A DNA stretch of 61,208 nucleotides from an uncultured Gammaproteobacteria bacterium (GTDB lineage: Bacteria; Patescibacteriota; Patescibacteriia; UBA1558; GWA2-36-10): assembly GCA_964633905.1 (NCBI GenBank), contig CAZWIT010000002.1, forward strand, positions 1 to 61,208. The letters are read 5' to 3'. Below are positions 1 to 27,237 of the stretch, piece by piece (position 1 is the stretch's first letter; each line of letters starts with the position of its first letter). The notes below the pieces were generated by a model, which saw only the letters and a list, made by a program, of their open reading frames with translations, did not search any database and was not told where the DNA came from. The translations under genes and the position numbers were made by a program.

Positions 1-90
1 TGGCGGAAGGTGAGGGATTCGAACCCTCGGAGGTTTTGACACCTCGCACGCTTTCCAAGCGTGTGCACTCGACCACTATGCGAACCTTCC
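1..90 (-). tRNA. tRNA-Ser(GGA)
   Basis: Reverse complement folds as a cloverleaf: GGAAGGT acceptor, CACGC-TTGGAAA-GCGTG anticodon arm, long variable arm, GGTTCGAATCC T-loop, encoded CCA. Confidence 0.97.
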
Positions 91-330
91 AGGATTAACT
101 AATTTTTTAAATGCTTCTCCACTCTTATATTTTTTTATTTGTTTTTCTCTTAACCATGCTTGGTTTTTGTTCGGAAATATTTCTTGATAAACTAATATCC
201 ACGGTCCTTTATTTTTAGTAGATTTATTAGCCCCAGAATTATGATGTTTTATTCTCTGATTAATATCAGAAGTAATACCAATGTAGTATTTTTTTGTTTT
301 TAAACTTTGAATTATATAAACAATACACAT
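76..330 (-). CDS. Solo GIY-YIG nuclease (84 aa)
   Basis: VYIIQS..YYIGIT..R..HN.G..T....PW..VY.E.......LREKQIK motifs. Stop codon TAG lies at tRNA-Ser nt 13-15. Confidence 0.88.
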   Translation of the reverse strand: MCIVYIIQSLKTKKYYIGITSDINQRIKHHNSGANKSTKNKGPWILVYQEIFPNKNQAWLREKQIKKYKSGEAFKKLVNPGRFA

Positions 331-342
331 ACTTTATTTTAA

Positions 343-418
343 GCTTTTCCCGCCTTTGGCGGGACCCCGCCGTAGGCGGTGGCCAAGCGTGTGCACTCGA
401 CCACTATGCGAACCTTCC
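343..418 (-). pseudogene. tRNA-Ser 5' fragment interrupted in the anticodon loop by a 35-nt insert
   Basis: 383..418 is identical to 55..90 (36 bp). AAAGC at 347..343 continues the tRNA sequence after the insert. Confidence 0.9.
348..382 (-). repeat. Double-hairpin mini-insert, copy 1 (CCACCGCCTACGGCGGGGTCCCGCCAAAGGCGGGA)
   Basis: Hairpins CCGCC/GGCGG and CCCGCC/GGCGGG. Homologous to 26967..26999. Confidence 0.85.
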
Positions 419-433
419 TAAAAAACCAACTAT

Positions 434-486
434 GTTTACCCCGTAAATTAAGACGAATGTCATGAGGAAAAATTGTACGGGGTGAC
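434..486. repeat. ACCCYGT-family imperfect inverted repeat
   Basis: gtttaccccgtaaatt (434-449) versus aattgtacggggtgac (471-486). Confidence 0.65.
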
Positions 487-623
487 CTCTCCCAACTTAG
501 TTTTCCAAAAGACTTAATTTTTAACCTTCGAGGTTGATTTTAAAAAATCCCTATAAATATAATAGATCAAGGTAAAATAGTCAATTTTTCTAGTCTTAAG
601 GCATTTTTTTTGTTATAATATTA

Positions 624-3094: not shown

Positions 3095-6000
3095 ATGTAC
3101 AAGCAAGCCTTGCCATCTTGGCGTTTTAGACCTTCTGTTCAAACCAAGCAAAGAATTATAAAAACAGTAGAATTATTCTTTTACTTTCTAGTTTGGCTGG
3201 TTAAAATTGTTAGTTCAGTACTCACAGCTATTGGTTATATTTTATTTATAAGCCTAGTATTTATTACTAAAAATACTTGGCAGTTAATGCCACCATTATT
3301 ACGTTGGCTTCGTTTTAAATCTGCACCTTATTTGCTTAATATTTTACGTTTAACCCTTAAGTTAATTAAAGCTAGCTTTTTATTCATTGGTCGCAAGATA
3401 CCAGTTTTAGAGTTAGCACTACGTTGGCTTTTTAAAAATATTTTTTTAGCTTTTTTCTACGCATTTAAAGGAATTTATTTAGTGCTAGCTACTATATTGA
3501 AAATTATTTGGTATGGTTTTACTATTTTCTTTGTCAAATTTTTAGGATTTTTTGGACCCAAAGCTAGTTATTTGTATGATAATCGGGCAGAAATCAAAGT
3601 CAGGGCAAATAAACAAGTTAAAGAATATAAATTATTTTTACTATGGCTTGCTAAGCCATTTTTACATTTCTTGCCTAAAAAATACGAAAAGAAAATATTA
3701 CCTAAAACTAAGAAAATAAATCAGGCCTTATCTCCAGTTATTGGCTTGTCGGATTTTAAGCATTTATTGCGTGAACCAAAACAAATTTTATTAAGACGGG
3801 CCATTGCCTCTTGGCTGGTATTTTTCTTAGTGATTTCTACCTTTGGTGTGGCTTCTTTAACTCCTTTGTTTAATTGGCTGTTTAGAGACAGACAGCCAGC
3901 TTACGCAGCTACTTTTACTGGTGCAGTTAAAGTTTCAGCTGGCAGCACTACTTTGTCAACTAATGGTAGTTGGTATACGGCCATGGCTTATTCGGGAGAC
4001 GGGATCAATGGTGATGCAGAAGCTGGGACTTTTAATCCTATTCATCCTGGTCCATCAGCAACTGACGGCGCAGCTGGGGCTTTGGCTCTAGGCCACGTAT
4101 CAGTAGCTGCAACTGCGACTTATGCGGCTGCTCAATTTATTGGTTTTAAGCCTAGTGATACTGGTAATTTGAGAGGAGTCCAGTTAATTTTAGAGAATTT
4201 AACTATTACTTCATTGTCAAATGTTGATATAGTAGTCGAACTTTTGAGTTTTCCCACAGCTTCTTGTACTACTTCTTGTACAAATTATGTGACTGGCACG
4301 CAAGGTGCCTATACCTATCCGAGCGATACTGTAGTTTTAAGAAGAGCAGTTAAACAGTTTAATCAAGGATTATCTGGTGAAAATTTAGCCCCTGGACAAT
4401 ATGGTCGTGGTACTTTTGATTTTCGTTTTGATCCAGAAGTGGCAGTCACTGCTGGGGCTCATTATGGTTTTAGGATTATCAATATGGGTGCTGGTACGCC
4501 AGTTTTTGGTACTTGGGCAGCCAACGCTCCTTATGGTGATTTTCCAACGGTTAATGGCACTATTAGGACTATTGGTGCTAATGACATTGATTTGACTAAT
4601 GCGCCCACAATTAATATGCCAAAAGTGTTAGCGGCACATAATGGCTTGACTGCCGCTGCCATGGTGGCTGCCAATTCAGCTGCTGGCGTGGGCTTGCCGA
4701 CAGTAAGGCGTACTCAAAATGAGCATTGGACAGCTACTTATTCTAGCGCTAATGCTAATTGGACTTTGACTGGAACTGTGTCTGGTACTCAGACTAATAA
4801 ATTAACAACACCTACAACTGGCGGAACAGGTGCTGCTTGGGTAAATGATGGTGTTCCGTTTACTACTTTAACAGCTGCTTCTACTGCTAGCACTGTTTTA
4901 TGTGTGGCCTCTACTAGTGGTTTTGCTACTAATCAAACTATTAATTTATGGGATGCAGATACTGCCACTGTTTCTTTGACAGTAGCTTCAGTTACTAATT
5001 CTCATGCTAGCTGTAGTGATGGTCCAGCTATTATAACTACTGCAGCTACGGTAGTTGGGTTTACTCCAGAAAAAAATGCCTCAGTTGCGCAGGCTATTTG
5101 GAAAAATCGTATTGTCCAAGGAGCAATGACTACTTTAACAGCCGATTCAGCTGTATCTACTCGTGTTTGTGTAGCTAGTATTGATGGTTTTTCGGCAGCA
5201 GTTGGTACAGCAGCTAGCGTTCAAATTTGGGACAACGATACAGCGCCAATTGTGACGCATCGTATTGCTAGTACTAATGCTTCGGATGGAGCTTGTCCGG
5301 CTAGTGGTCCGTCTATTATTTTAGCAGCAAATTTAACTACAGCTTTTACAGTAGCTCAAGGAGCTATGATTTCAGAAATCTCAGCTAATATTTCAAATAT
5401 CGGCACACCTTCAGATGGTGATGTCTTACGTTTTACTTCTTATAATTTTACCCAAAATCCGATTGGGTTAAATTCTCAATTAGCACGTACAACTTCAGTA
5501 GTTTTAGCTTATGCTAAGAGTCAAGCTTTGGCTACTTCAAATACTAATTATCCTTTTTTATCCAATCGACATATTTATTTTGTCGCTTATGGTGATGCTA
5601 ATACTACGGCTCCAGCTGATGGAGATATTGTGATAGTAGGTAATGGTAAAAGTAATGCTGATCCTTATGACTCTACAAATTTAACTAATGACTATACTTG
5701 GTTGGCTAAAGAGCAGCACGTGGTCAGTATTGATCGCTCCTGGGACGCGGCCTTAGCTTATACTGGTAATTATGGTGCAGCTATTGGCGATGGCGCTGGT
5801 ACTCGTGGTAATTTTGCTGCTTATTCATTTAATGGCGGTTGGGTTTCAGCTGTTATTACGCCAGGTTCAAAATTAACAATTGCTGATAATACTAATAAAC
5901 ATTATCGTCTGACTATTCCTGGTAAAATAGTTTTGGATTCGGATGCAATTTTAGCCTTTGGGGATAGTACTGATCCATTGCCAGCTTCTACACATGCTGA

Positions 6001-9000
6001 TATTTATTTTGATAATGTCTCACCGGCAGTTTCTTCAAATTTAGGCTCAGACTCAGCCGCTTCTACATCCTTGACCGTAGTATCAACCACTGGTTTTGCG
6101 CCAGGCGATACTATAGTTATTGATGACAATGATTCGCCAGCTATTACCAGGATTATAGCGGCTATTGAAAATTCTACCACCTTGACTCTGACAGCTGCAG
6201 CTGTCACTGGCTATACCACAGCTCAAAGTGCTTTTGCTGCTAAGGGACCACAAACCGAATTACCTACAGGTTCAGATAGAAGAGCGGGCGTTTATACTAT
6301 GACTGGTTTGACTGGCACTGGTGCTGGTACGCAGGATAATAATAGAACTGGTAGAGTTAATATTTATGGTCAAGGCAGCGATAATTTTCGTACCATGAAA
6401 AGCGATTTGGCAGTTGATATTGACGGTAATATTGATACTGGTTATTTGGGAAACAATTCAACCGATGCTGGTAATACTTGGGTTGATGTCAAAGATAATG
6501 TAGTAGGTAATTGGCAGCCACTAGATAATATTGCGGTAGCGGGAGCTACTAATCAAGTAGTAGATAATAATTTGTCTTCCGTAAGAATGGGCGGTAATGA
6601 TGATGCTAGCCAATTTCCAGTTTGGACAGGTCTAGCTGGTTTAGGTCGTAATGCTTTGCCAACTTCTAATATGGAAGTTGCAGAAATTGGCACAGTACCA
6701 ATTACTAATGTTTATAATGCTGATTATAACGGTGGTTCACCTTTGTATTCAGTAAATTATGCTACATCTACTACTTGGACATTGTTTGGTGATGGGGCAA
6801 ACTCTGAACTTAATGATGCGATTTATTTTGGTGATCAGGGTACAAATATGATGTATTCATTGGAAGCTAATCTCGGCACCCTAATGAATGCTTCGGCAAT
6901 TTTTACTTGGGAGTTTTATAATGGAGCTGGTTGGACTGCTTTTACACCGCGTGATGCTTATAAATATCAGACACGTACTGGTCATACCATACCATTGTCA
7001 GCTAATACTACCAGAAATTCATATACAGTATCAGTCACCTCTGGTAATCAGGCAAACTTTGGGGTGGATCAAGTAGTCATGATTGACGATAATGATTCTA
7101 GCCCTATTTATCGGCGCATCAGTGCCGTGGCAGCTGGCGTAATTACTTTTACAGAGCCAGTAACAGCTGATTATACTACTGCTCAATCGGCCAGTATTTC
7201 GCGGCTCAATGGAGGTCAATGGAAATCTTTTGACCCTAGTAATTTTTTTACAGAAAATGGTAATGCTCCGCGTCGTATTTTGAGCTGGACACCTTATGAC
7301 TTGTCTGGTACGCCAGCTAAAACTACCATCAATGGTGTAAATGCTTATTGGGTCAGAGTGAGAATTTCTGGCTTTACTTCTTGGACTACTTCTCCAGTCA
7401 ATCAAAATACTCCAATTGGTATGAGCGGAATCGAGCGTATAGATTCAGGAGCTTTAAATGTGTCTAGCGGTAGTCAAGAAGCAAAAATTAGCCAAATTAC
7501 CACTGGCTTAAGCTATGACCCTAATGAAACATTTACTTTAGAATATGGTAATTCACCCGGCTGGATAGAAACACATAAATATTCAGCTGCTGCCATTGTG
7601 CCGCCCTCAGCTCCCTATGTTTGGCATATTCAGAATGGTCAACTAAATATTAATGAGACTAACTTAACTCATCTTAATATTCAAAATACTAATGTAGACA
7701 CCACTGATTATACAATGTCAGGTTTGGTGTATATGGATATGGTAGCTGATGCTACTAGTCGTCGTCTAGGATTTCTGATGCGCCAAAGTCTTGATGGTAA
7801 TGGTTATGCTGCTTTAATCACTAAAACCAATGCCGCTAATACAGTTGGCTTTTATACAACTTTGGCTGGTGTGCCAACAGTGATTGGAACGCCTACTTCC
7901 AAAGCATTTTCTGACAGTACTTGGTATTGTTTAAAATCACAGGTCTCAGGCACAACTTTGAATGTCAAATTTTGGGCAACGACCGATTGTAATAGTGGTG
8001 AACCTGGCTCGTGGGATTTTACTACTACTAATAGTACTTATACTAGTGGTAAAGCGGGCGTCTATGCAGGCTCTGCGACTTCTGGCTCTGGTACTAAAGC
8101 TATTTTTGACAGCATTAGTTCTGATACTGGCTGGACGGACAATTTTGATGATGTTGATTATTGGCGCTTAACAGGCTCTAGCGCTAGTGTAATTGGTAAT
8201 GCTTATCCAAGTGTTCCTTTTACTAGCTCTTATTTGAATTTTACTATTAAGCATAAAGGCGGCTGGAATGGCACAGTCAGGCCAGAAATAGGAGATAAAA
8301 TATATATTAGTTCTACGGCTATTAGAAGCTACAAAGGCTTGGATAGTTCTGTTGGTATTACTACTAATAATACTAATACTAAATACGAAGTATGGGATTT
8401 CGAATGGAATCCAGCAGCCTCCAACTATACTGTGACTGGTAGCGCTACGGGTGCGGCTGGTACAGCTACGCCAGGAACAACCTATACGGCACCTGATAAT
8501 AAAGTTTCTTTGCGTATTAATTCTGGTACACCAACAGCGACCAAGTTTGGTGATCGGATGTTGCTTTTACAAAATAATTATTTGCGTAATAATGGCGCCT
8601 GGACAGGTGTTAATGGCATGGGTAGTGCGGTTTTGATGCCGCCTACTTGGACTCTGACTGGTAGTCCTATCGCTACTAGATATAATATAGAGGGTATCAG
8701 TGGTACAGCTACAGCTAGACAACACGGTACTATTGATTTTTGGTTTAAGACTAATTATAGTGGTTCACCAGCAACTTCTACCAGTCCTTTTGGGCAGTAT
8801 TTACTGGATTACGCAGCCAATGGTGATACGGATCGTTTGTTTATTAGACATAATACTAATGGCAAATTAGAGGTAGCTATTTATGCTGGCGCTGCTCAGG
8901 GTACTTTGTTACAACAGACTTTTTCGGCTACTGCTGGTCAGTGGTATCACTTGCGTGTGGCTTGGCGTGAAGCAGCTACTGCTTTTAAACGCGCTTGGCT

Positions 9001-12000
9001 AGATGGTGTAGCTTTTGAAACTAACCAGGGTACTACTTTGGGTACTAGAGGTGCTAACGCTGGTTTATTGCGTATAGGTAATAATTGGCAATACAATGGT
9101 GCTTTTGATGGAGCTATAGATGAGTTTAATATTTTTGATGCTGAACTCGATACCTCTGGCTCTTGTAATTGGGGCAATTTTGATGTGCCGACTACGGTTT
9201 GGACAGGGGGTGCTACTCCTGCTAATTGTCCTTCGGCTACTGGTGCTAATATTTATCGAGCTAGTTTTGATACGGCTATGAATCCTCAAGAAGGCTGGGT
9301 TTGGGCAGACTATGCCTATGGCAGTCCTAATATGATTTTTACTAATGGTGCTGATACTGGTAATGAAAGAATCAGAGTTATTACTTATCCGCAGAGAACT
9401 AGAGTGTGGGTAGATAATACTGGAGAAAAGTATACGCCTTCAGCACGTATAAAATATGGTTCTGGTCACGAAGAAAATGGTACGGCCGCTACTCTAGCTG
9501 GTTGGGCGCATAATTTTACTTATCATCATAAAGCTGCTCGTGACTCTAGCTCTGCGCCTACCTATTCACCAGTTTTGAATCTCAAACGTAGTACGCATAT
9601 CTGGTCAGATGAAGAGATTAGTTATACAGGTGCTACTTTAGTAGCTGCCAATATCGTTAATCAGGGTCTTGGTTTTGGCGTATCAGCCGTTGGTTTGGCA
9701 GGTTTATCCAATATGAACTTGAGTCATCTATCAATGGAAAACCAATATAATAATTTTGCCGTGACTACTAACCCTTATACTTCAGTGACGCCTTATCCAT
9801 CACAGACTATTTCCAAATCAGTATTTTATAATTACTTTGATCGTGCCTATACTGTGGTCAGTAAAACTCAGGGTTCGAATATGGTTGGTGCTTATTTTGT
9901 GACTACTCACGTGGGAGCTGCCAATATTGGTACAGGTTATAATGCTTTTACTAGTCAAAATGTTGGTATTGATGGCAGTATTTTTATGGGGCATCGTAAT
10001 GCCTATGTGACTGTGCCACCAGCTGCTGCTGGTGGTGCGGCGACATTTGTGTCTGGTCGTCTTTATACCGTAGCTAATTCCGAATTTTATAATAATGGTG
10101 TGACTGGTGCTGGTACATCAGGAGCTTTAAATTTTGGTGTTGGTGTCGCTAAAGTAAATATTAATAATAATAAGTTTTCTATTAATACTAATGGCATTAG
10201 ATTACATGGTAATGCTTTTGTGGCTATGTCCGATAATGTACTTGACGGGCATGTTTCTGATGGCGCAGTAACAGTTGGGGCTGAATATGGCTCGGGTATT
10301 AGGTCACATCCTTCTTATTCTTCGGTATCAGTGACTGATGATGGTAGTATTTATGGTCGTGGTATGTGGAATGAAGCCGACATTAGTATGCCACCCAATA
10401 CTACTACTTTTGAAGCCGAATCTTTGTTACAGTTTACCGGAGTTGATACCCAGATTTTAAGTCCAGTATTTTTTGGCACCCAAGATTATAATAATATGTC
10501 TCGCTTGGGTGATCATTATATGGCTAGCACTATACCAGGCACTGACATTCGTATTAATTATTCTAGCAGTACTAAAGACATAGTTAATCAAAGTACTTTT
10601 GGTAATATGCGCACTACTGGCGCTGGACTTATAGATACCACTGTGCATACAGCCGGCGGTTACGCTTGGCGTATGGAACCGCAGAGTTCGGATGTGCCAT
10701 TAGAATATAGCGCTAAAGTTATTGGTGTGGCTAATGAACCCTTGGCTGTTACTGGTTATATTCGTGTTAATAGTTATTATGGTTCTAGTAATTTACCAAC
10801 AGTTACTTTGTCGGGCCTTGGCATGACGGGAGCTAATTTAACTTGGACAGCAGCCAATTCAGCTAACGAATGGCAACAATTTGTAGTGTCAGGAACACCA
10901 AATGAATCAGCTTTAGCAGATTTAACTATTTCTAGTCAATCATCTTTCGTAGTGGAAGATGAAGGTAGTAGTGAAGTAATTTTTAATCCGCTAGGTAATT
11001 ATTTACCGCCATGGGTAGAAGATGTAGATAAATCTTGGACACCAAATCAATGGGTTGGTTATTTATTTAAAGATACTTATGGTCGTATTTTTGAAGTAGT
11101 GAAAAATACACCTACTATATTATTTTTGAAGGGCATAGTAGCTCCGCATCTAAAGAGTACAACCATGACTAATGCTACGGCTGGTGATTATCAGCTTTTC
11201 AGGAGACCTTATGTTTATTTGGATGATGTATCGGTTTTATCAGGTACAGTAGATACTGGTACTTTAGATTTTTTCTCAGCTGGGCAGCCAGTTTCACCAT
11301 GGTTATCAACTGGTTTAACAGCTTCTAGTATTTGGGGAGCGCAAATTGGTTCATTTGCTGATATTGATGGCTCGTTTGGACAATTATTAAATGATCGTTT
11401 GGCAGTAAAAAGAGGTTTGGTGAGCGATGTGGCTGCCTCGACAACTTCTTTTGTCACAGATTTAACACAGGCTACATCTAATTTTTATCAAAATCAGACA
11501 GTAGTAATGATGAGTGGTCAAAATGCTGGTATTTCTCGCCGTATTTCTAGTTATAACGGAACAACTAAAGCGATTACTGTAGATGCGGCCTTGCCTTTTG
11601 CTCCGGCTTTTAACGATGAATTTGTTATTTTGAGTCAATATACCAATATTAGTAGTAGTGGCGGTGGTGCTTCAGCTGAAGAAATTGCCCAAGCAGTTTG
11701 GGAATATGTTGATCGAAAATTAACTAGTGCTACTTTGACTAGTGGTGGGGCTTTAGCTACTAGTGCTGAAATTGCCGCTTTGCAGGCTGACGTTACTTAT
11801 ATTAGAAATAAAGTAGATGATATTTATACAGACACTCAATATATTAGTGGTATTGTTGATGATATTTTGGCTAAGTGGGGTATTTATAGTGCGGCTGATA
11901 TTAATACTAGTTTAAACACTGTCTTAACTAGAATCGGGGAGCACACAGATTTATCAAGTGCCAATACTTTATTTGGTCGTAGTAAATATTTGCAAGAAAA

Positions 12001-15000
12001 GTGGGGAACGCAAACAGCTGATACAATTTTTAATAAAGCAGACGATGCTTATAATAAGATTAATTCCGTGCAAACAGAATTGGGTTATAATGGTCAGTCA
12101 ACTACCGCTTATCAAGACTTGCAATCAGTATTGGCTTATGTTGATCAAATGGAGGGCTATGTTGATACTTTAGAAACTTTAGTTGGTTCGCCAGCCGATT
12201 TATCTAGTGCGGATACTTTGTTTGGCAGAATCAAAAAAAATTACGAGGCTATTGAAGCTTTGAATAATTTGTCGGCCCAACAAGTTTGGGAGTATGGTAC
12301 ACGTACTTTGACCGGTGGGGTGACACTTGATGATCCTACTCAGATTTGGGACGTGGCTTCTGCTTTGCTTTCCAATTCTAGTTCAATCGGTAAATTAATT
12401 GTTGATAATTTAGATACTACTATTTCTTCACGCGGCACTAGCAACCTAACAGCAGCTGATGTGTGGTCAGCGGCTACTAGGACTATTACTAATATCGAAA
12501 ATGATGGTTTGGCAGCTTTAGCTGCAGCGGTTTGGGCTAATTCCACCAGGGAATTAACAGCTGGTGATTTAACTGCGCAAAGAGTTTGGGATACTTTATT
12601 AACTTCGATTAATACTATTGGTAGTATTGGCGTATTGTTAGGTACTAATATTGATACTACTATTTCTTCTCGAGCTTCCGCGGCTGATTTAGCTAGCTTG
12701 CAAAGCACATTAAATGGTTTAATTAGTAATTTAATTGTTGCTCAAAAAGCTGTTAACGATCCTAACCCTTCGGCAACAGAGTTTATTACAACTTTGACTA
12801 ATGCTAATGATGATTTTTATAATGATGGTGTCTTGGTCTTTACTTCGGGTGCCAATGCTGGACAGGTTAGAAGGATTACTAATTATGATGGAGCAACTAA
12901 AACAGTTACCGTTGATCCAGCTTTAAATATAGAACCAAATAGTAGTGATACTTTTACGATTTTAGCGTCAACTGCCAATGCTTCTTTAGACCCAGCAGCC
13001 ATTTGGACTTATGCTAATCGTCGTTTGACCAGTGGTAATTTAGATGTAGGTAGTTTGGCTACTTTGTCTGATTTAGAATCTAGCGAAGCAGCTTTAGGAG
13101 CTCAACTGGATACTTTGATTAATAATTTGATTATTACCCAAAAATCTATTAGCGATGCCAACCCTTCTACTACTTCTTTTGTTACTACTTTAACAAATTC
13201 AACTAGTGATTTTTATAAGGATGAAGTCTTAGTCTTTACAACTGGTGCTAATGCTGGGCAAGTTAGGCGTATTAGTAGCTATAATGGAGCTACCAAGTCT
13301 CTTACTATTACTCCAGCTTTATCCAATACACCGACTGATGGTGATGATTTTACTATTTTGGCTTCAACTGCCAATGCATCTTTAGATGCCACAGCAATCT
13401 GGGCTTATGCTAATCGTACTTTGACGGCCGGCACTTTAGATTCTGGTAGTCTGGCGACTCTATCTGATTTGCAATTAACTGAAACTAATTTAACTGACAA
13501 GATTAATGAAAATCAAACTCGTTTGGATAAGATTATTAGTAGCTTAATTGTTGCCGAAAAAGCAGTTAATGATGCCTCGGCTTCTAATGTGACATTTATT
13601 ACTACTTTAGCTAGTGCAGTGGATGATTTTTATAATGATGGTGTCTTGGTCTTCACCTCGGGTGCCAATGCCGGACAGGTGAGAAGGATTACTAATTATG
13701 ATGGGGCAACTAAAACAATTACCGTTGATCCAGTTTTAAGCCTTGCTCCTGGCAATGGAGATACCTTTACTATTCTAGCAGCTACAGCTTCAGCTAGTGC
13801 TAGCTTGGATGCAGCCGCAGTTTGGAATTATGCAACGAGGCGCTTGTCAGACGGCACTTTAGATTCCGGTAGTCTAGCAACTTTAGCTGATTTGCAATCA
13901 ACTGAAGATAACTTAGATCTTAGCATTACAGCGGTAGCTAATGCAGTTGATTTGTTAAGTGATGATTTAATTTCTATTAGGTCAACTGTTAATGAAAATA
14001 CAACCTCCAGCACACTAGCTAGTTTTGCTACTAATTTAAGTTCTTCGGTTAACGATTTATATAATAATGCCCTGATCACTTTTACTACTGGTAATAATGC
14101 CGGTGTAGCACGACGTATCGAAGACTATAATGGTACTACTAAAATTTTGACGATTGAGCCAGACTTGACGACACCACCATTACACGGTGACGGTTTTACT
14201 ATTTTAAAGACTTTAGCGGTGCCAGTTACTAAGATTGATACTATTGGCACTGATGTTGCAGGCATCAAAGATGATGTTAGTACTATCAAGGCTGATATTG
14301 CTTTGATTAAATCTCGTTTAGATAATATTGATGCCAATATTATAGCTTTGGAAACAGCAGTTGATAACATTGAAGTGAGTAGCAGTGGTAGTACTGTTAA
14401 TAATATTACTCGTGTTTATGAAATAAAACCGGAAGAAATGTTTAGCTCCATGAATTCAATTGCTTCCTCTATCCAAAACATAAACTCTACTTTAGGGAGA
14501 TTAGATAACAATACTTTGAGCAATATTTTATCTGTTGCTCAAGAAAATACCACAGATTTAAAATATGTACGCAATAAATTAGCTGACTTTAGGGCAGTAA
14601 GTACAGTGCAGCGACAAGTTTTAGATAATGTTGCAGTACCAGTTGTAAATACTTGGTACACATCTGGTTCGGTTGATCTCAATATTATGGTTTCTAATCC
14701 TGCTCAAACTCCTCAAAAAGTACCATTTAAAATTTATTTACCCAAAGAAGCAAAGTTAGAGCATATTATGGATGATGGCGGATTTAATATTCAGTATGAT
14801 ATTCAGCTAGATACTTTGTATGCTAGTGGTGAATTAGAGCTAGCGCCCGGTGAGTCGGTCAAGAAATTTATAAAGATGCGGGATATTTGGCAGATTCCTG
14901 AAGACGAGACAAAATTAGCTAAATCTCAAGCAGATGAATTTTATAAAAAATTAGTTAAGGGCGCATATTCTTCGCAAGCTTTACTTTTAAAAAATGACAT

Positions 15001-15997
15001 TGATACTAGAGTAGAAAAAATTGTTCGTACTCAGGAAGAAAACATTGCTTCGCCGCAAGACAAAATTATGTCTTATCGTGAAAATAAAGAGAGCTTAGCG
15101 GCAGTAAAAAGTGATTTAGAAGAATTAAAAGCTTTAATAGCACAGGCGGATTCTTCTAAAGGATTTTTAGGTGCCTTAGGTGGCATTCAGACTATTTCAG
15201 TTTGGGGTATCATAATTGCTTTCGTTACAGGTTTTGGTTTATTGGTAGCTATTTTGTTTTCAATGTGGAAACATCAAATGGCTATTGCTAGTGGTCAAAT
15301 GGCCTTGCAGTCACATTTGATGGGCAATAAAGCGATTAATTCAGAAAGAGGCTCTAGTGCTAAAAAGAAAAAGAAAAAAACAAATAGCAAAATTAGGCAA
15401 GAGCAAGTAGCAGCAGATTCTCAAAATCAAGAAACGATTAAGGTAGCTACTAATTTTAAGACTTATGTAAAACAAGCCTTTTCTAAATTATTTGGTAAAA
15501 ATAAAGTATCATTATTAGTATTATTGGCACTATTACTAATATATTTTGCTATTAGGCAATTTAATCTTTGGTCAGTGGTAGCCGGCTTAAATAATAAGCC
15601 AGTTAGCGAAAATCAAATAACAACAGAAACTTCTAGCCCTGATTGGCAGGATAAAACTACGGCTAATTTAAGTGCCGATGATGTTAATCTTTCTTTTGGC
15701 AATGAAGAAGGAGCTCTGGCTACTACTTCTAATCCTAGTATGCTCGCAACTACCACTGTTCCAGAAGAGTCTACTTTATATATTAATATAAAATCTACGC
15801 CCACGGGTTGGTTAAATGTGCGCAAGAGTGCTAGTAAAACTGCAGAAATCTTGACGCAAGTAAATAGTGGTGATAGATTTGAATCTATAGAGAAAAAGAG
15901 TGTTATTGGCGATGATTATGATTGGTATAAAATAAATTTTTCCAAAGACCAATCGGGTTGGGTTTATGGGCAGTATGTTGCGGAGATAGAGGGGTGA
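3095..15997 (+). CDS. Giant (4300 aa) membrane-anchored surface protein: ConA/LamG-like and beta-helix-like regions, internal repeats, coiled coil, two C-terminal TM helices, SH3b
   Basis: Uninterrupted ORF. LamG-like GTIDFW..WYHLRVAW..FDGAIDEFNIFD; C-terminal WLNVR..WYKI..GWVYGQYV (SH3b); five FYN..G.NAG..RRI..Y.G.TK repeats. Confidence 0.85.
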   Translation: MYKQALPSWRFRPSVQTKQRIIKTVELFFYFLVWLVKIVSSVLTAIGYILFISLVFITKNTWQLMPPLLRWLRFKSAPYLLNILRLTLKLIKASFLFIGRKIPVLELALRWLFKNIFLAFFYAFKGIYLVLATILKIIWYGFTIFFVKFLGFFGPKASYLYDNRAEIKVRANKQVKEYKLFLLWLAKPFLHFLPKKYEKKILPKTKKINQALSPVIGLSDFKHLLREPKQILLRRAIASWLVFFLVISTFGVASLTPLFNWLFRDRQPAYAATFTGAVKVSAGSTTLSTNGSWYTAMAYSGDGINGDAEAGTFNPIHPGPSATDGAAGALALGHVSVAATATYAAAQFIGFKPSDTGNLRGVQLILENLTITSLSNVDIVVELLSFPTASCTTSCTNYVTGTQGAYTYPSDTVVLRRAVKQFNQGLSGENLAPGQYGRGTFDFRFDPEVAVTAGAHYGFRIINMGAGTPVFGTWAANAPYGDFPTVNGTIRTIGANDIDLTNAPTINMPKVLAAHNGLTAAAMVAANSAAGVGLPTVRRTQNEHWTATYSSANANWTLTGTVSGTQTNKLTTPTTGGTGAAWVNDGVPFTTLTAASTASTVLCVASTSGFATNQTINLWDADTATVSLTVASVTNSHASCSDGPAIITTAATVVGFTPEKNASVAQAIWKNRIVQGAMTTLTADSAVSTRVCVASIDGFSAAVGTAASVQIWDNDTAPIVTHRIASTNASDGACPASGPSIILAANLTTAFTVAQGAMISEISANISNIGTPSDGDVLRFTSYNFTQNPIGLNSQLARTTSVVLAYAKSQALATSNTNYPFLSNRHIYFVAYGDANTTAPADGDIVIVGNGKSNADPYDSTNLTNDYTWLAKEQHVVSIDRSWDAALAYTGNYGAAIGDGAGTRGNFAAYSFNGGWVSAVITPGSKLTIADNTNKHYRLTIPGKIVLDSDAILAFGDSTDPLPASTHADIYFDNVSPAVSSNLGSDSAASTSLTVVSTTGFAPGDTIVIDDNDSPAITRIIAAIENSTTLTLTAAAVTGYTTAQSAFAAKGPQTELPTGSDRRAGVYTMTGLTGTGAGTQDNNRTGRVNIYGQGSDNFRTMKSDLAVDIDGNIDTGYLGNNSTDAGNTWVDVKDNVVGNWQPLDNIAVAGATNQVVDNNLSSVRMGGNDDASQFPVWTGLAGLGRNALPTSNMEVAEIGTVPITNVYNADYNGGSPLYSVNYATSTTWTLFGDGANSELNDAIYFGDQGTNMMYSLEANLGTLMNASAIFTWEFYNGAGWTAFTPRDAYKYQTRTGHTIPLSANTTRNSYTVSVTSGNQANFGVDQVVMIDDNDSSPIYRRISAVAAGVITFTEPVTADYTTAQSASISRLNGGQWKSFDPSNFFTENGNAPRRILSWTPYDLSGTPAKTTINGVNAYWVRVRISGFTSWTTSPVNQNTPIGMSGIERIDSGALNVSSGSQEAKISQITTGLSYDPNETFTLEYGNSPGWIETHKYSAAAIVPPSAPYVWHIQNGQLNINETNLTHLNIQNTNVDTTDYTMSGLVYMDMVADATSRRLGFLMRQSLDGNGYAALITKTNAANTVGFYTTLAGVPTVIGTPTSKAFSDSTWYCLKSQVSGTTLNVKFWATTDCNSGEPGSWDFTTTNSTYTSGKAGVYAGSATSGSGTKAIFDSISSDTGWTDNFDDVDYWRLTGSSASVIGNAYPSVPFTSSYLNFTIKHKGGWNGTVRPEIGDKIYISSTAIRSYKGLDSSVGITTNNTNTKYEVWDFEWNPAASNYTVTGSATGAAGTATPGTTYTAPDNKVSLRINSGTPTATKFGDRMLLLQNNYLRNNGAWTGVNGMGSAVLMPPTWTLTGSPIATRYNIEGISGTATARQHGTIDFWFKTNYSGSPATSTSPFGQYLLDYAANGDTDRLFIRHNTNGKLEVAIYAGAAQGTLLQQTFSATAGQWYHLRVAWREAATAFKRAWLDGVAFETNQGTTLGTRGANAGLLRIGNNWQYNGAFDGAIDEFNIFDAELDTSGSCNWGNFDVPTTVWTGGATPANCPSATGANIYRASFDTAMNPQEGWVWADYAYGSPNMIFTNGADTGNERIRVITYPQRTRVWVDNTGEKYTPSARIKYGSGHEENGTAATLAGWAHNFTYHHKAARDSSSAPTYSPVLNLKRSTHIWSDEEISYTGATLVAANIVNQGLGFGVSAVGLAGLSNMNLSHLSMENQYNNFAVTTNPYTSVTPYPSQTISKSVFYNYFDRAYTVVSKTQGSNMVGAYFVTTHVGAANIGTGYNAFTSQNVGIDGSIFMGHRNAYVTVPPAAAGGAATFVSGRLYTVANSEFYNNGVTGAGTSGALNFGVGVAKVNINNNKFSINTNGIRLHGNAFVAMSDNVLDGHVSDGAVTVGAEYGSGIRSHPSYSSVSVTDDGSIYGRGMWNEADISMPPNTTTFEAESLLQFTGVDTQILSPVFFGTQDYNNMSRLGDHYMASTIPGTDIRINYSSSTKDIVNQSTFGNMRTTGAGLIDTTVHTAGGYAWRMEPQSSDVPLEYSAKVIGVANEPLAVTGYIRVNSYYGSSNLPTVTLSGLGMTGANLTWTAANSANEWQQFVVSGTPNESALADLTISSQSSFVVEDEGSSEVIFNPLGNYLPPWVEDVDKSWTPNQWVGYLFKDTYGRIFEVVKNTPTILFLKGIVAPHLKSTTMTNATAGDYQLFRRPYVYLDDVSVLSGTVDTGTLDFFSAGQPVSPWLSTGLTASSIWGAQIGSFADIDGSFGQLLNDRLAVKRGLVSDVAASTTSFVTDLTQATSNFYQNQTVVMMSGQNAGISRRISSYNGTTKAITVDAALPFAPAFNDEFVILSQYTNISSSGGGASAEEIAQAVWEYVDRKLTSATLTSGGALATSAEIAALQADVTYIRNKVDDIYTDTQYISGIVDDILAKWGIYSAADINTSLNTVLTRIGEHTDLSSANTLFGRSKYLQEKWGTQTADTIFNKADDAYNKINSVQTELGYNGQSTTAYQDLQSVLAYVDQMEGYVDTLETLVGSPADLSSADTLFGRIKKNYEAIEALNNLSAQQVWEYGTRTLTGGVTLDDPTQIWDVASALLSNSSSIGKLIVDNLDTTISSRGTSNLTAADVWSAATRTITNIENDGLAALAAAVWANSTRELTAGDLTAQRVWDTLLTSINTIGSIGVLLGTNIDTTISSRASAADLASLQSTLNGLISNLIVAQKAVNDPNPSATEFITTLTNANDDFYNDGVLVFTSGANAGQVRRITNYDGATKTVTVDPALNIEPNSSDTFTILASTANASLDPAAIWTYANRRLTSGNLDVGSLATLSDLESSEAALGAQLDTLINNLIITQKSISDANPSTTSFVTTLTNSTSDFYKDEVLVFTTGANAGQVRRISSYNGATKSLTITPALSNTPTDGDDFTILASTANASLDATAIWAYANRTLTAGTLDSGSLATLSDLQLTETNLTDKINENQTRLDKIISSLIVAEKAVNDASASNVTFITTLASAVDDFYNDGVLVFTSGANAGQVRRITNYDGATKTITVDPVLSLAPGNGDTFTILAATASASASLDAAAVWNYATRRLSDGTLDSGSLATLADLQSTEDNLDLSITAVANAVDLLSDDLISIRSTVNENTTSSTLASFATNLSSSVNDLYNNALITFTTGNNAGVARRIEDYNGTTKILTIEPDLTTPPLHGDGFTILKTLAVPVTKIDTIGTDVAGIKDDVSTIKADIALIKSRLDNIDANIIALETAVDNIEVSSSGSTVNNITRVYEIKPEEMFSSMNSIASSIQNINSTLGRLDNNTLSNILSVAQENTTDLKYVRNKLADFRAVSTVQRQVLDNVAVPVVNTWYTSGSVDLNIMVSNPAQTPQKVPFKIYLPKEAKLEHIMDDGGFNIQYDIQLDTLYASGELELAPGESVKKFIKMRDIWQIPEDETKLAKSQADEFYKKLVKGAYSSQALLLKNDIDTRVEKIVRTQEENIASPQDKIMSYRENKESLAAVKSDLEELKALIAQADSSKGFLGALGGIQTISVWGIIIAFVTGFGLLVAILFSMWKHQMAIASGQMALQSHLMGNKAINSERGSSAKKKKKKTNSKIRQEQVAADSQNQETIKVATNFKTYVKQAFSKLFGKNKVSLLVLLALLLIYFAIRQFNLWSVVAGLNNKPVSENQITTETSSPDWQDKTTANLSADDVNLSFGNEEGALATTSNPSMLATTTVPEESTLYINIKSTPTGWLNVRKSASKTAEILTQVNSGDRFESIEKKSVIGDDYDWYKINFSKDQSGWVYGQYVAEIEG
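12809..13733 (+). repeat. Intragenic 112-bp near-identical direct repeat (12809-12920 and 13622-13733)
   Basis: 6 mismatches by eye, 5 synonymous. Confidence 0.9.
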
Positions 15998-26072: not shown

Positions 26073-26196
26073 ACCAAGCAAGGTTGATGATTTCTTAATG
26101 GCTCCGGCAGAAAATTTGGAGTAAAAAATAATTTTCTGCACTTCGCCAAGATTAAAAAAATACCAACTAAGGTTGATATTCTTTTAATGGCTCCGG
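26073..26196 (-). repeat. Degenerate tandem duplication of tRNA-Asn 3' end plus terminator (89-bp offset)
   Basis: ttaatggctccgg at 26095-26107 and 26184-26196; aaggttgat at 26080-26088 and 26169-26177. Confidence 0.75.
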
Positions 26197-26262
26197 GGGA
26201 GGGATTCGAACCCACGACCAATTGGTTAACAGCCAACTGCGCTACCACTGCGCTACCCCGGA
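26188..26262 (-). tRNA. tRNA-Asn(GTT)
   Basis: GTTGG-CTGTTAA-CCAAT anticodon arm, GGTTCGAATCC, CCA; no intron. Confidence 0.97.
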
Positions 26263-26510
26263 ATAAAATTTTTAATAAGATTTTCTTTTTTATTTTTTTT
26301 CCACTTTTTAATTTGTGCTTCGCGCCTCATAGCCTCTATCTTATTTGTAAATCTTTCAAAATATACTATTTTTACTGGTTTTCTATGCTTGGTGTATTTA
26401 GCTCCATTACCACTATTATGTTTTTCTTCCCTTTGTTTTATGTTAGTTGTGTAGCCGGCATAGAGCGTATTGTCTTTGCAGCGCGCAAGGTAGAAAAAAT
26501 ATTTTTGCAT
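26253..26510 (-). CDS. Solo GIY-YIG nuclease (85 aa, UPF0213/YhbQ-like)
   Basis: FFYLARCKDNTLYAGYT..R..KHNSG.GAKYT..RKPV..VY.E....AMRREAQIK. Stop TAG is tRNA-Asn nt 8-10. Confidence 0.9.
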   Translation of the reverse strand: MQKYFFYLARCKDNTLYAGYTTNIKQREEKHNSGNGAKYTKHRKPVKIVYFERFTNKIEAMRREAQIKKWKKNKKENLIKNFIPG

Positions 26511-26542
26511 ATCATTTTTTGAGGTCGTTTTTGTATATACAC

Positions 26543-26673
26543 AATGTCCTTCGGCTCACTCTGTTCGCTCAGGACATTCGCCTCGTCTTTCTTGATGAGG
26601 GGTTGAGGCACTGAACAAAGTGAAGTGCCGAAACCATGAGCGAGGAGGAATGAAATGACGACGAGTCGAATGG
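26543..26673. repeat. REP-like palindrome cluster on the tRNA-Met 3' trailer
   Basis: gtcc-TTCGGCT-N9-CGCTCA-ggac; ggcac...gtgcc hairpin; 40-bp CCA-TTCGACT-N21-CGCTCA-TGG unit (minus strand) at 26634-26673. Confidence 0.75.
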
Positions 26674-26916: not shown

Positions 26917-26945
26917 TCGTAAAAAATTTGGCTTAATAATTCATA

Positions 26946-27006
26946 TGGTCGGGGCGAGAGGACTTGCCACCGCCTTTGGCGGGGTCCCGCTCCGCGGGAA
27001 ACCTCT
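26946..27006 (-). pseudogene. tRNA-Pro-type 3' fragment interrupted in the T-loop by a 33-nt insert
   Basis: Removing 26967-26999 gives AGAGG-TTCAAGT-CCTCT-CGCCCCG-ACCA: a perfect T-arm, acceptor 3' strand and CCA. Confidence 0.85.
26967..26999 (+). repeat. Double-hairpin mini-insert, copy 2 (CCACCGCCTTTGGCGGGGTCCCGCTCCGCGGGA)
   Basis: Same stems and ends as 348..382; only the loop regions differ. Confidence 0.85.
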
Positions 27007-27119: not shown

Positions 27120-27130
27120 TGGACATTTGC

Positions 27131-27237
27131 TGTGCCCTTCGGCTACGCTCAGGGCATTCGACGACCACTATTCTAATTAAATTTAAGCGGTCGAAGACCA
27201 TGAGCGAAGTTTCACAAAGTGAAACGGAGTCGAATGG
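27131..27237. repeat. REP-like palindrome cluster on the tRNA-Ala 3' trailer
   Basis: gccc-TTCGGCT-A-CGCTCA-gggc; 40-bp CCA-TTCGACT-N21-CGCTCA-TGG unit (minus strand) at 27198-27237. Confidence 0.75.

Follow-up and report, generated by a model that had tools for sequence, protein, structure and literature searches.

Architecture of the locus

The DNA analyzed here, which we call the window, is a stretch of 61,208 nucleotides from an uncultured bacterium registered as a gammaproteobacterium and placed by GTDB among the Patescibacteriota (contig CAZWIT010000002.1, positions 1 to 61,208). At its very start, on the minus strand, a tRNA-Ser gene houses a cassette of about 330 bp with a single open reading frame (ORF), which encodes a small GIY-YIG nuclease. 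Read along the minus strand, a displaced copy of the tRNA 5' part (383-418) is followed by a 35-nt GC-rich double hairpin (CCACCGCCTACGGCGGGGTCCCGCCAAAGGCGGGA, 348-382), the motif AAAGC (343-347), a 12-nt spacer (331-342) ahead of the ATG at 330, the nuclease ORF (76-330, 84 amino acids) and an intact tRNA-Ser(GGA) gene (1-90), called by ARAGORN and by Rfam (RF00005, 55.2 bits, E = 1.2e-10). A sequence-only reading made earlier on the same DNA had proposed this order, and every part was recovered at the positions it had given. The displaced copy matches 55-90 at 36 of 36 positions (BLAST E = 9e-15), exactly as had been claimed, and the pair is the sole long direct repeat within the first kb. 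By count the copy corresponds to tRNA bases 1-36; it ends at the second anticodon base, and the hairpin is placed between the second and third anticodon bases of this copy. At the other end the ORF runs into the intact gene, where tRNA bases 1-15 double as its last four codons, GGA AGG TTC GCA (GRFA), and its TAG stop. The AAAGC motif equals tRNA bases 37-41, but it is partly constant cassette sequence as well: AAAGC[TT] is a constant motif among the 21 modules compared, and AAAGCTT is kept after the hairpin in a relative (L016) whose local tRNA has AAAGGC.

Upstream of the displaced copy lies a promoter-like TTGACT-17-TATATT (556-584, minus strand), a consensus match from a promoter scan that is conserved in alignment: it stands upstream of the tRNA in the related loci L089 and L090 and upstream of the displaced copy in L001. 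The cassette therefore has the ancestral promoter of the tRNA on one side and the intact tRNA on the other. The outcome of the insertion is that the resident 5' part of the tRNA stays beside its promoter, interrupted by the hairpin, and that the ORF is now flanked by the promoter and a complete, working tRNA.

Recurrence beside tRNA genes

A scan of one genome per species yielded 185 relatives, of which the best 80 were examined. At 57 of these 80 loci ARAGORN calls a tRNA or tRNA-like gene on the same strand whose start lies between -20 and +60 nt relative to where the protein homology ends; a back-of-envelope estimate of the chance expectation is about 0.2% per locus. Eighteen of the other 23 were read out, and in each of them either a tRNA copy disrupted by a hairpin lies at that place or the contig ends within a tRNA. 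The test named in the sequence-only reading, an enrichment of homologous genes beside tRNA fragments, thus came out overwhelmingly positive. The adjoining tRNAs are of types Ser (four anticodons), Tyr, Pro, Glu and Cys, and the hosts belong to Patescibacteria, Bacteroidota, Omnitrophota, Thermotogota, Endomicrobia and others. Across the ORF stands a second copy of the same tRNA, partial or disrupted, which starts precisely with base 1 of the tRNA; although tRNA sequences vary among hosts, this copy often matches the local tRNA at 100%. L001, whose protein is 69% identical to that of the window, has the same order of parts and an identical 35-nt insert, and its upstream tRNA piece is unlike its own intact tRNA; L003 (76% identical protein) carries the same insert. 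Independent assemblies from JGI, ENA and Logan and from NCBI metagenome-assembled genomes show this architecture again, many of them including the identical 35-nt insert, which argues that it is the product neither of chance nor of assembly.

The site of insertion varies among these loci. An insertion in the anticodon arm, as had been proposed, is what the window shows, but relatives use other places. The hairpin lies in the anticodon loop for Ser-GGA, Tyr and Pro, in the D-loop after base 14 and in inverted orientation for another class, and elsewhere after base 23, in place of the anticodon arm (Glu) or in the T-loop. In Patescibacteria it stands upstream of the ORF, at a fairly constant distance of about 10-30 nt ahead of the ATG; in Bacteroidota it replaces the D-arm of a full-length tRNA copy downstream of the ORF. 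Usually only one side is flanked by the hairpin, and in L073 both are. Downstream 3' remnants starting 2-3 nt ahead of the hairpin were seen in L073, L051, L088, L046 and L076. Bacteroidota also contain tandem arrays of ORF plus tRNA-like units, with frameshifted ORF copies within the arrays (L031). In five loci from Bacteroidota and Thermotogota (L031, L038, L070, L065 and L062) the D-arm is replaced by CCCCGCC-N4-GGCGGGG and ARAGORN calls the result tRNA-Pro, so that the tandem arrays of annotated tRNA-Pro in such genomes are probably in part pseudo-tRNAs.

The window contains a second small GIY-YIG ORF (26253-26510, minus strand; 85 amino acids, Pfam E = 5.8e-19), which is 37% identical to the first and closer to typical YhbQ-type proteins. 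Its TAG stop falls inside the 5' end of a tRNA-Asn gene (26188-26262, minus strand), and relatives of this second type also adjoin tRNAs in L040, L045, L059 and L068. Nearby, the spacers that follow tRNA-Met and tRNA-Ala (26511-26670 and 27120-27234, minus strand) share a different hairpin-rich leader, TTCGACTC...TCGCTCATGG right after the CCA and then CGAATGYCCTGAGCG...CCGAAGGRCA, and leader-like sequences follow tRNAs in L021, L038 and L053 too. This post-CCA leader may be the signature of the second GIY-YIG family, which would insert at tRNA 3' ends.

The nuclease

The protein scores 66.5 bits (E = 2.7e-18) with the Pfam GIY-YIG domain (PF01541), whose cut-off is 22.6. All of 31 homologues have R26, H30, N31 and E62, and at least 90% of them have Y5 and Y16; judged by this comparison, the catalytic residues of the GIY-YIG superfamily are conserved. 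The closest entries of the PDB by sequence are the UPF0213 proteins BH0048 and EF2693 (1ZG2, E = 1.8e-8; 1YWL, E = 0.005). An AlphaFold2 model (predicted local distance difference test score of 87.5) gave the same neighborhood in Foldseek, which ranked UPF0213 (1ZG2) first, then the Slx1 nuclease domain with a TM-score of 0.65-0.72, then the catalytic domains of I-TevI (1LN0) and UvrC. Neither Pfam nor the model showed a separate DNA-binding domain, as the catalytic domain fills all 84 residues.

Sixty homologues share 46-76% identity with this protein and come mostly from Patescibacteria. Many of them terminate in G-(E/R)-(V/F)-A-stop, which implies that they likewise read into a tRNA 5' end. 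The nearest neighbor in protein sequence often sits at another tRNA, one of different anticodon for 24 of the 57 tRNA-adjoining loci and of different isotype for 14 of the 57, which suggests that the target is set by the tRNA pieces carried along and not by the protein. The wider family comprises 6101 clusters at 50% identity (E <= 1e-3). In viral contigs we found one weak protein match (31% identity) and no match to the hairpin, and for this near-absence the idea of phage carriage was dropped. PADLOC gave no meaningful match to a defence system, PHROGs gave only weak generic matches to homing endonucleases, and NCBIfam gave a sub-threshold match to a group I intron endonuclease. The proteins P0005 and P0030 and many other entries of the family carry 20-50 extra N-terminal residues (e.g., ...RSLGHRLRRGPASGGKS...); these extensions are likely mis-annotated starts, upstream calls that translate the GC hairpins.

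The double hairpin

The sequence-only reading had counted one nuclease gene as the cargo and listed the 35-nt insert without a structure. The insert is a strongly conserved double hairpin, CCACCGCC-TAC-GGCGG GG TCCCGCC-AAA-GGCGGGA. The identical 35-mer is present in L001, L003 and L013 despite an ORF DNA identity of 60-78%, and over 66 pairs of loci the hairpin is 88% identical compared with 60% for the ORF DNA and 44% for third codon positions. Across 26 hairpins 95.8% of cells are paired and 6 of 12 pairs show compensatory changes, a result matched by none of 500 shuffles. An all-GC hairpin lies within 200 nt of the ORF in 79 of 82 loci, at a density of 2.8 per kb against 0.38 per kb elsewhere. 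In about 300 kb of flanks the strict double-hairpin pattern was never found at a distance of over 350 nt from a GIY-YIG ORF, and the window holds only two GC hairpin clusters of this type. These comparisons argue that the double hairpin is a functional part and the hallmark of the cassette, not a filler, and covariation of its stems indicates that it is selected as an intrastrand structure, be it in single-stranded DNA, in a cruciform or in RNA. Rfam returned for positions 1-2000 at E <= 1 only the tRNA and matches at chance level, with no intron, ribozyme or known RNA for the hairpin. A palindromic operator acting in double-stranded DNA was considered and is unlikely: the stems, of the CCGCC/GGCGG type, are constant, but the length of the loops ranges from 3 to about 25 nt. 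A role at the RNA level is conceivable.

Hairpins are nested within one another's loops in L045, L053, L015 and L059, inserts of about 22 nt, rich in AT, occupy hairpin loops in L023, L003, L066/68, L051 and L076, and L003 has two additional GC hairpins inside its upstream tRNA piece.

A pattern scan of metagenomes, made with 4-nt loops (those of the window have 3 nt), returned at least four loci, L085 to L088. The matches in L087 and L088 have tRNA contexts and those in L085 and L086 do not: there the double hairpin (205-241 and 4702-4738, respectively) stands in intergenic DNA without tRNA-like flanks, bordered by short direct repeats (AAATGA; AATTATGAA), and no GIY-YIG gene was found on either contig. 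Such copies hint that the hairpin may be able to insert by itself. The only other double hairpin of the window (26945-27000, minus strand) is also without an ORF and matches 359-383 at 92%. It lies in the T-loop of a tRNA-Pro-like 3' fragment (AGAGGTT[T+hairpin]CAAGTCCTCTCGCCCCGACCA), 44 nt past an intact tRNA-Pro(GGG), and this fragment looks like the displaced 3' remnant of an earlier tRNA-Pro allele.

Empty site, allele replacement and nesting

The gene beside the cassette (624-1862) encodes an MFS transporter, and through it an empty orthologous site, which the sequence-only reading had suggested seeking, was found in L089. The two orthologues are 95% identical in protein and 89% in DNA. 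In L089 a tRNA-Ser(GGA) comes right after the TTGACT-17-TATATT, and ORF, hairpin and repeat are all missing. The tRNA of this site (the L-type allele) and the intact tRNA of the window (the W-type allele) are only 77% identical, with differences in all stems, and compared with the 89% of the neighboring gene this argues that the tRNA allele itself was replaced.

The repeat in the window had been read as a duplicated tRNA 5' part. The repeat stands, but the locus is nested and holds a third, older tRNA remnant at 425-492 (minus strand), recognized by alignment to the tRNA of the empty site and to L090. This remnant is of the L-type and consists of GGAGAGGTC (bases 1-9), a 49-nt long-loop hairpin and CATAGTTGGT (bases 11-20). 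It lies at the orthologous position, and L090 has the same L-type remnant; the nested locus must therefore stem from at least two events. In L001 the situation is reversed: a W-like remnant lies behind the promoter and an intact L-type tRNA past the ORF. Nested remnants are present in L046, L073, L051 and L020 too. A long-loop hairpin of 46-49 nt (ACCCCGTA...TACGGGGT) after base 9 is one of the other inserts that break tRNA-Ser copies (425-492 of the window; L090 1-110). A further one, rich in AT and about 68 nt long, follows base 35 and has CTTG|TTCCC as its recurrent junction (L020 2740-2845); in L020 it is followed by a further intact tRNA-Ser allele without an ORF.

That an incoming element restores the gene by supplying a new 5' part had been proposed, and two loci bear it out. 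In L010 and L014 the D-arm of the upstream remnant is that of a canonical tRNA-Ser, whereas the intact tRNA carries the cassette-type TCGCATAG D-arm, which also supplies the stop codon of the ORF. The new tRNA 5' part therefore travels with the ORF. For the window the proposal holds less well, since here the whole tRNA, and not only its 5' part, differs from the allele of the empty site.

The proposed element was nuclease-only and integrase-free, with its displaced 5' part upstream and the intact gene after the ORF, and in this the reading was right. No integrase was found among the ORFs of at least 110 amino acids in the first 10 kb (extending to 15,997), with one 124-aa ORF there (7031-7405, minus strand) left unscanned; the others encode the MFS transporter, a DNA-alkylation repair protein and a 4300-aa protein. 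The flanks of L001 lack an integrase as well. The 4300-aa protein is encoded by a single ORF at 3095-15997 (plus strand), and its first 1302 residues have no Pfam match.

A possible mode of spread and its alternatives

We estimate at about 50% the probability that the locus holds one copy of a widespread, integrase-free selfish cassette, which would reside in tRNA genes and spread by nuclease-stimulated homologous recombination. Its architecture, its recurrence at tRNA genes, the conserved hairpin, its presence or absence together with the replacement of the allele, the nesting and the tandem arrays are the observations behind this proposal. The moving unit would consist of the double hairpin, a few tRNA-derived bases, the spacer, the GIY-YIG gene of about 80 codons and a tRNA segment fused to its 3' end, and comparison of the loci suggests that this segment includes the 5' part as far as the hairpin position at the least, and in many cases the whole tRNA. 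The nuclease would break or nick a cognate tRNA gene that lacks the cassette, at one of its exposed loops (the D-loop, the anticodon loop or the T-loop), and homologous recombination of the host would repair the break from the filled allele or from an excised or taken-up copy, the tRNA sequence itself serving as homology arms on both sides. Such a process would amount to a homing-like gene conversion or to an "ends-in" integration, in which the resident 5' part is left behind the promoter and a working gene is restored by the tRNA segment that the ORF brings along. The same product could come from a small excised circle or from taken-up linear DNA, through recombination within the tRNA. The double hairpin might be a cis-acting structured site for a structure-specific nuclease, where it would start recombination or protect the leftover copy. 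As a complete tRNA follows the ORF, the insertion is not lethal, and its loss is hard without damage to an essential gene.

Several points weigh against this proposal. All its mechanistic steps were deduced from static sequence, and the recurrence covers the best 80 of the 185 relatives only. The intact tRNA is identical to the displaced copy around the junction (36 of 36 bases), whereas the filled allele of classical homing is immune. The 4-10 tRNA bases that follow the hairpin fall outside the model, and the homology arms of the D-loop class, at 14 nt, are very short for recombination of the RecA type. The position of the hairpin differs by phylum, upstream in Patescibacteria and downstream in Bacteroidota, in either orientation. 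The W-type and L-type alleles differ in their 3' halves too, unlike what the insertion of a 5' part alone would leave, and L089 could be a revertant instead of a naive site. Finally, the window begins exactly at the tRNA 3' end, and the right junction lies outside it.

The same data can be read with the hairpin as the traveler. In a version of which we are doubtful but which deserves mention, the hairpin and the Slx1-like nuclease would together form a new kind of mobile system, with a nuclease that recognizes extruded hairpins or cloverleaf loops of DNA and not a sequence, pasting by host repair, insertion of the hairpin into loops and addiction through the rebuilt tRNA; an insertion that targets loops would explain why the hairpin is nested inside itself. 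A stronger version, which we regard as unlikely, makes the 35-nt double hairpin the mobile entity, a tiny insertion aimed at hairpin loops, those of tRNA genes and its own, and mobilized in trans by the nuclease; the tRNA duplications with the ORF would be what survives of such insertions into essential genes. The nesting of double hairpins in their own loops and the AT-rich inserts in those loops speak for it, as does the choice of insertion sites, which are always loops or hinges of the cloverleaf (positions 14, 23, 35 and about 55). The presence of both orientations, the copies without an ORF, whether bordered by direct repeats in non-tRNA DNA (L085, L086) or lying in tRNA remnants (L088; 26945-27000 of the window), and the free length of loops on fixed stems, which fits an extruded hairpin better than a double-stranded palindrome, point the same way. 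Yet free dispersal is contradicted by the lack of double hairpins more than 350 nt from a GIY-YIG ORF in the 300 kb of flanks and by the mere two copies in the window, the tRNA sites show no consistent target-site duplication, and there is no known chemistry by which a GIY-YIG hydrolase would paste DNA. Less probable again is that the cassette serves the host or is presently immobile, its nuclease being a domesticated repair enzyme or a tRNA amplifier like SegB of phages T4 and T6, and its hairpins RNA-level elements (an mRNA stabilizer, a processing site, an attenuator or an operator). An ORF between the tRNA promoter and the tRNA would have to be co-transcribed with the latter, the distance from hairpin to ATG is nearly constant in Patescibacteria, the tandem arrays of ORF and tRNA-like units recall the amplification of tRNA-Tyr and segB driven by SegB (PMC13096335), and the family is large with conserved catalytic residues. 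It is harder to reconcile a host function with the presence or absence of the cassette between close relatives, the replaced allele, the nested remnants and the switching of the associated tRNA among closely related proteins. The extra tRNA copies are disrupted, so that the cell gains no tRNA dosage, the hairpin varies in position between phyla and in orientation, and the arrays contain frameshifted ORFs (L031).

Two further explanations can be given very little weight. A remnant of an integrase island, with the repeat as attL and attR, or a degenerate group I intron with its homing endonuclease, is highly improbable. The direct repeat does belong to a tRNA gene and the break is in the anticodon loop, the known seat of bacterial tRNA group I introns, but the repeat is the 5' and not the 3' part of the tRNA, the unit has only 328 bp, an integrase is absent here and in relatives, and the same minimal design is found across the 80 loci. 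As for an intron, Rfam gave no intron or ribozyme match in positions 1-2000, the 5' fragment ends in G where U would be expected for a group I 5' splice site, and an intact, uninterrupted tRNA follows the ORF. A mis-join of the assembly at a repeated tRNA is barely credible. Contigs that end inside a tRNA (L003, L004, L011, L043, L054 and L063) reveal the difficulty assemblers have with these loci; against this, the same order with host-specific tRNAs is found in many independent long contigs, projects and assemblers, the architecture is present in the draft genome of a cultured strain (L062), and a 36-nt repeat is shorter than typical reads. We also considered and rejected a split tRNA of the kind known from Nanoarchaeum, joined by trans-splicing, and an intron that the nuclease would cut out of the tRNA: an intact tRNA is never missing, and in Bacteroidota the hairpin takes the place of the D-arm and does not interrupt the gene.

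Comparison with known systems

The closest described system is SegB of phages T4 and T6. According to two reports (PMC2330249; PMC13096335), SegB is a free-standing GIY-YIG homing endonuclease encoded in a tRNA cluster, which cuts within tRNA genes with a preference for RAWTSGAAC and favors the inheritance of the tRNA region. Its homologues are statistically associated with tRNAs in phages, truncation of its C-terminus abolishes its toxicity, and it drives the recombination-dependent tandem amplification of tRNA-Tyr and segB (the last in PMC13096335). The cassettes resemble it in having a GIY-YIG gene outside any intron and next to tRNA genes. SegB is longer and borne by phages, whereas the cassette protein is a catalytic domain of about 80 residues from the UPF0213/Slx1 branch, located in cellular chromosomes and from a family essentially absent from viral contigs. 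Unlike segB, the cassette ORF is nested in the tRNA gene, has its stop codon in the tRNA and is accompanied by a displaced partial copy, and it comes with a conserved GC double hairpin, a feature that the available text on SegB does not mention. More generally, the cassette shares with the free-standing endonucleases of the Seg/Mob type the lack of an intron match and the presence or absence seen against L089; a separate DNA-binding domain that would recognize the site was not found in the 84-aa protein. As in the Seg/Mob type, the enzyme would cut the cassette-free allele, and repair would copy the cassette in. Intron endonucleases of the I-TevI type have the same catalytic fold, tRNA introns share the interruption of the anticodon loop, and the cassette would likewise spread by repair of a break from the filled allele. 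It differs from group I introns by having no ribozyme and by restoring the gene through duplication of the tRNA and not through splicing, and from the I-TevI type by the lack of a DNA-binding domain.

Slx1 and the UPF0213 proteins (YhbQ/BH0048) are the closest relatives of the cassette protein in sequence and structure. Slx1 cuts branched and stem-loop DNA according to structure and not to sequence, which by analogy would fit a target defined by loops and hairpins. Slx1 differs in requiring Slx4 and in having a RING domain, and the UPF0213 structures are annotated as hypothetical proteins only; in the literature we found no link of either to tRNA genes or mobile cassettes.

For the hairpin, the counterparts are mitochondrial. 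The GC clusters of yeast and the double-hairpin elements of Allomyces are mobile by an unknown mechanism, for which the help of organellar endonucleases was proposed (PMC4478555, citing Paquin et al. 2000). Like the cassette hairpin, they are short and GC-rich, consist of a hairpin or a double hairpin and lie in AT-rich genomes. The cassettes have their structure of two adjacent hairpins, and the nesting suggests mobility, but they do not show dispersal: the mitochondrial elements are organellar and widely scattered, while the cassette hairpin stays within a few hundred bases of the nuclease gene and in tRNA loops. No sequence relationship was seen between the two. A mobile endonuclease ORF of Allomyces reportedly brought along a foreign atp6 end, and the original fragment was displaced but stayed in place beside it, a case that would share with the cassette the logic of replacing part of a host gene.

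Islands and prophages that target tRNAs also insert in a tRNA gene, carry a replacement segment and leave a partial direct repeat. Those with a tyrosine integrase measure kilobases and usually duplicate the 3' part; the cassette has no integrase, duplicates the 5' part and measures about 330 bp. An element of the IS200/IS605 type is not what we found, the sole ORF encoding a GIY-YIG protein and not an HUH (Y1) transposase, and the hairpins usually standing on one side only. Our search of the literature returned no account of small GIY-YIG cassettes that sit inside tRNA genes and carry GC hairpins, which is not proof of novelty but suggests that the integrase-free spread of a nuclease gene by such a tRNA cassette is apparently undescribed.

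Implications

If the proposed spread by recombination is true, the cassette would be, at about 330 bp, the smallest self-contained route yet for a nuclease gene to colonize bacterial chromosomes. It would need no integrase, intron or DNA-binding domain, as the universally conserved tRNA genes would offer ready-made homology, and its seat between a tRNA and its promoter would make it hard to delete. If the hairpin and the nuclease form a mobile system of their own, this would provide a bacterial, tractable counterpart of the mitochondrial GC clusters and double-hairpin elements. The cassette offers a tractable system for studying the movement of GC hairpins, as there is a cultured carrier, Flavisolibacter ginsengisoli DSM 18119.

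There are consequences for annotation as well. As hairpin-bearing copies are called tRNA-Pro by ARAGORN, the tRNA counts of Bacteroidota are probably inflated, and many of the "longer" GIY-YIG proteins in databases would be translated hairpins. For the large UPF0213/YhbQ-like family, whose function is unknown, the cassettes provide a concrete context. In Patescibacteria, they may explain why close relatives can differ so sharply in a tRNA allele, 77% identical here, next to a gene that is 89% identical.

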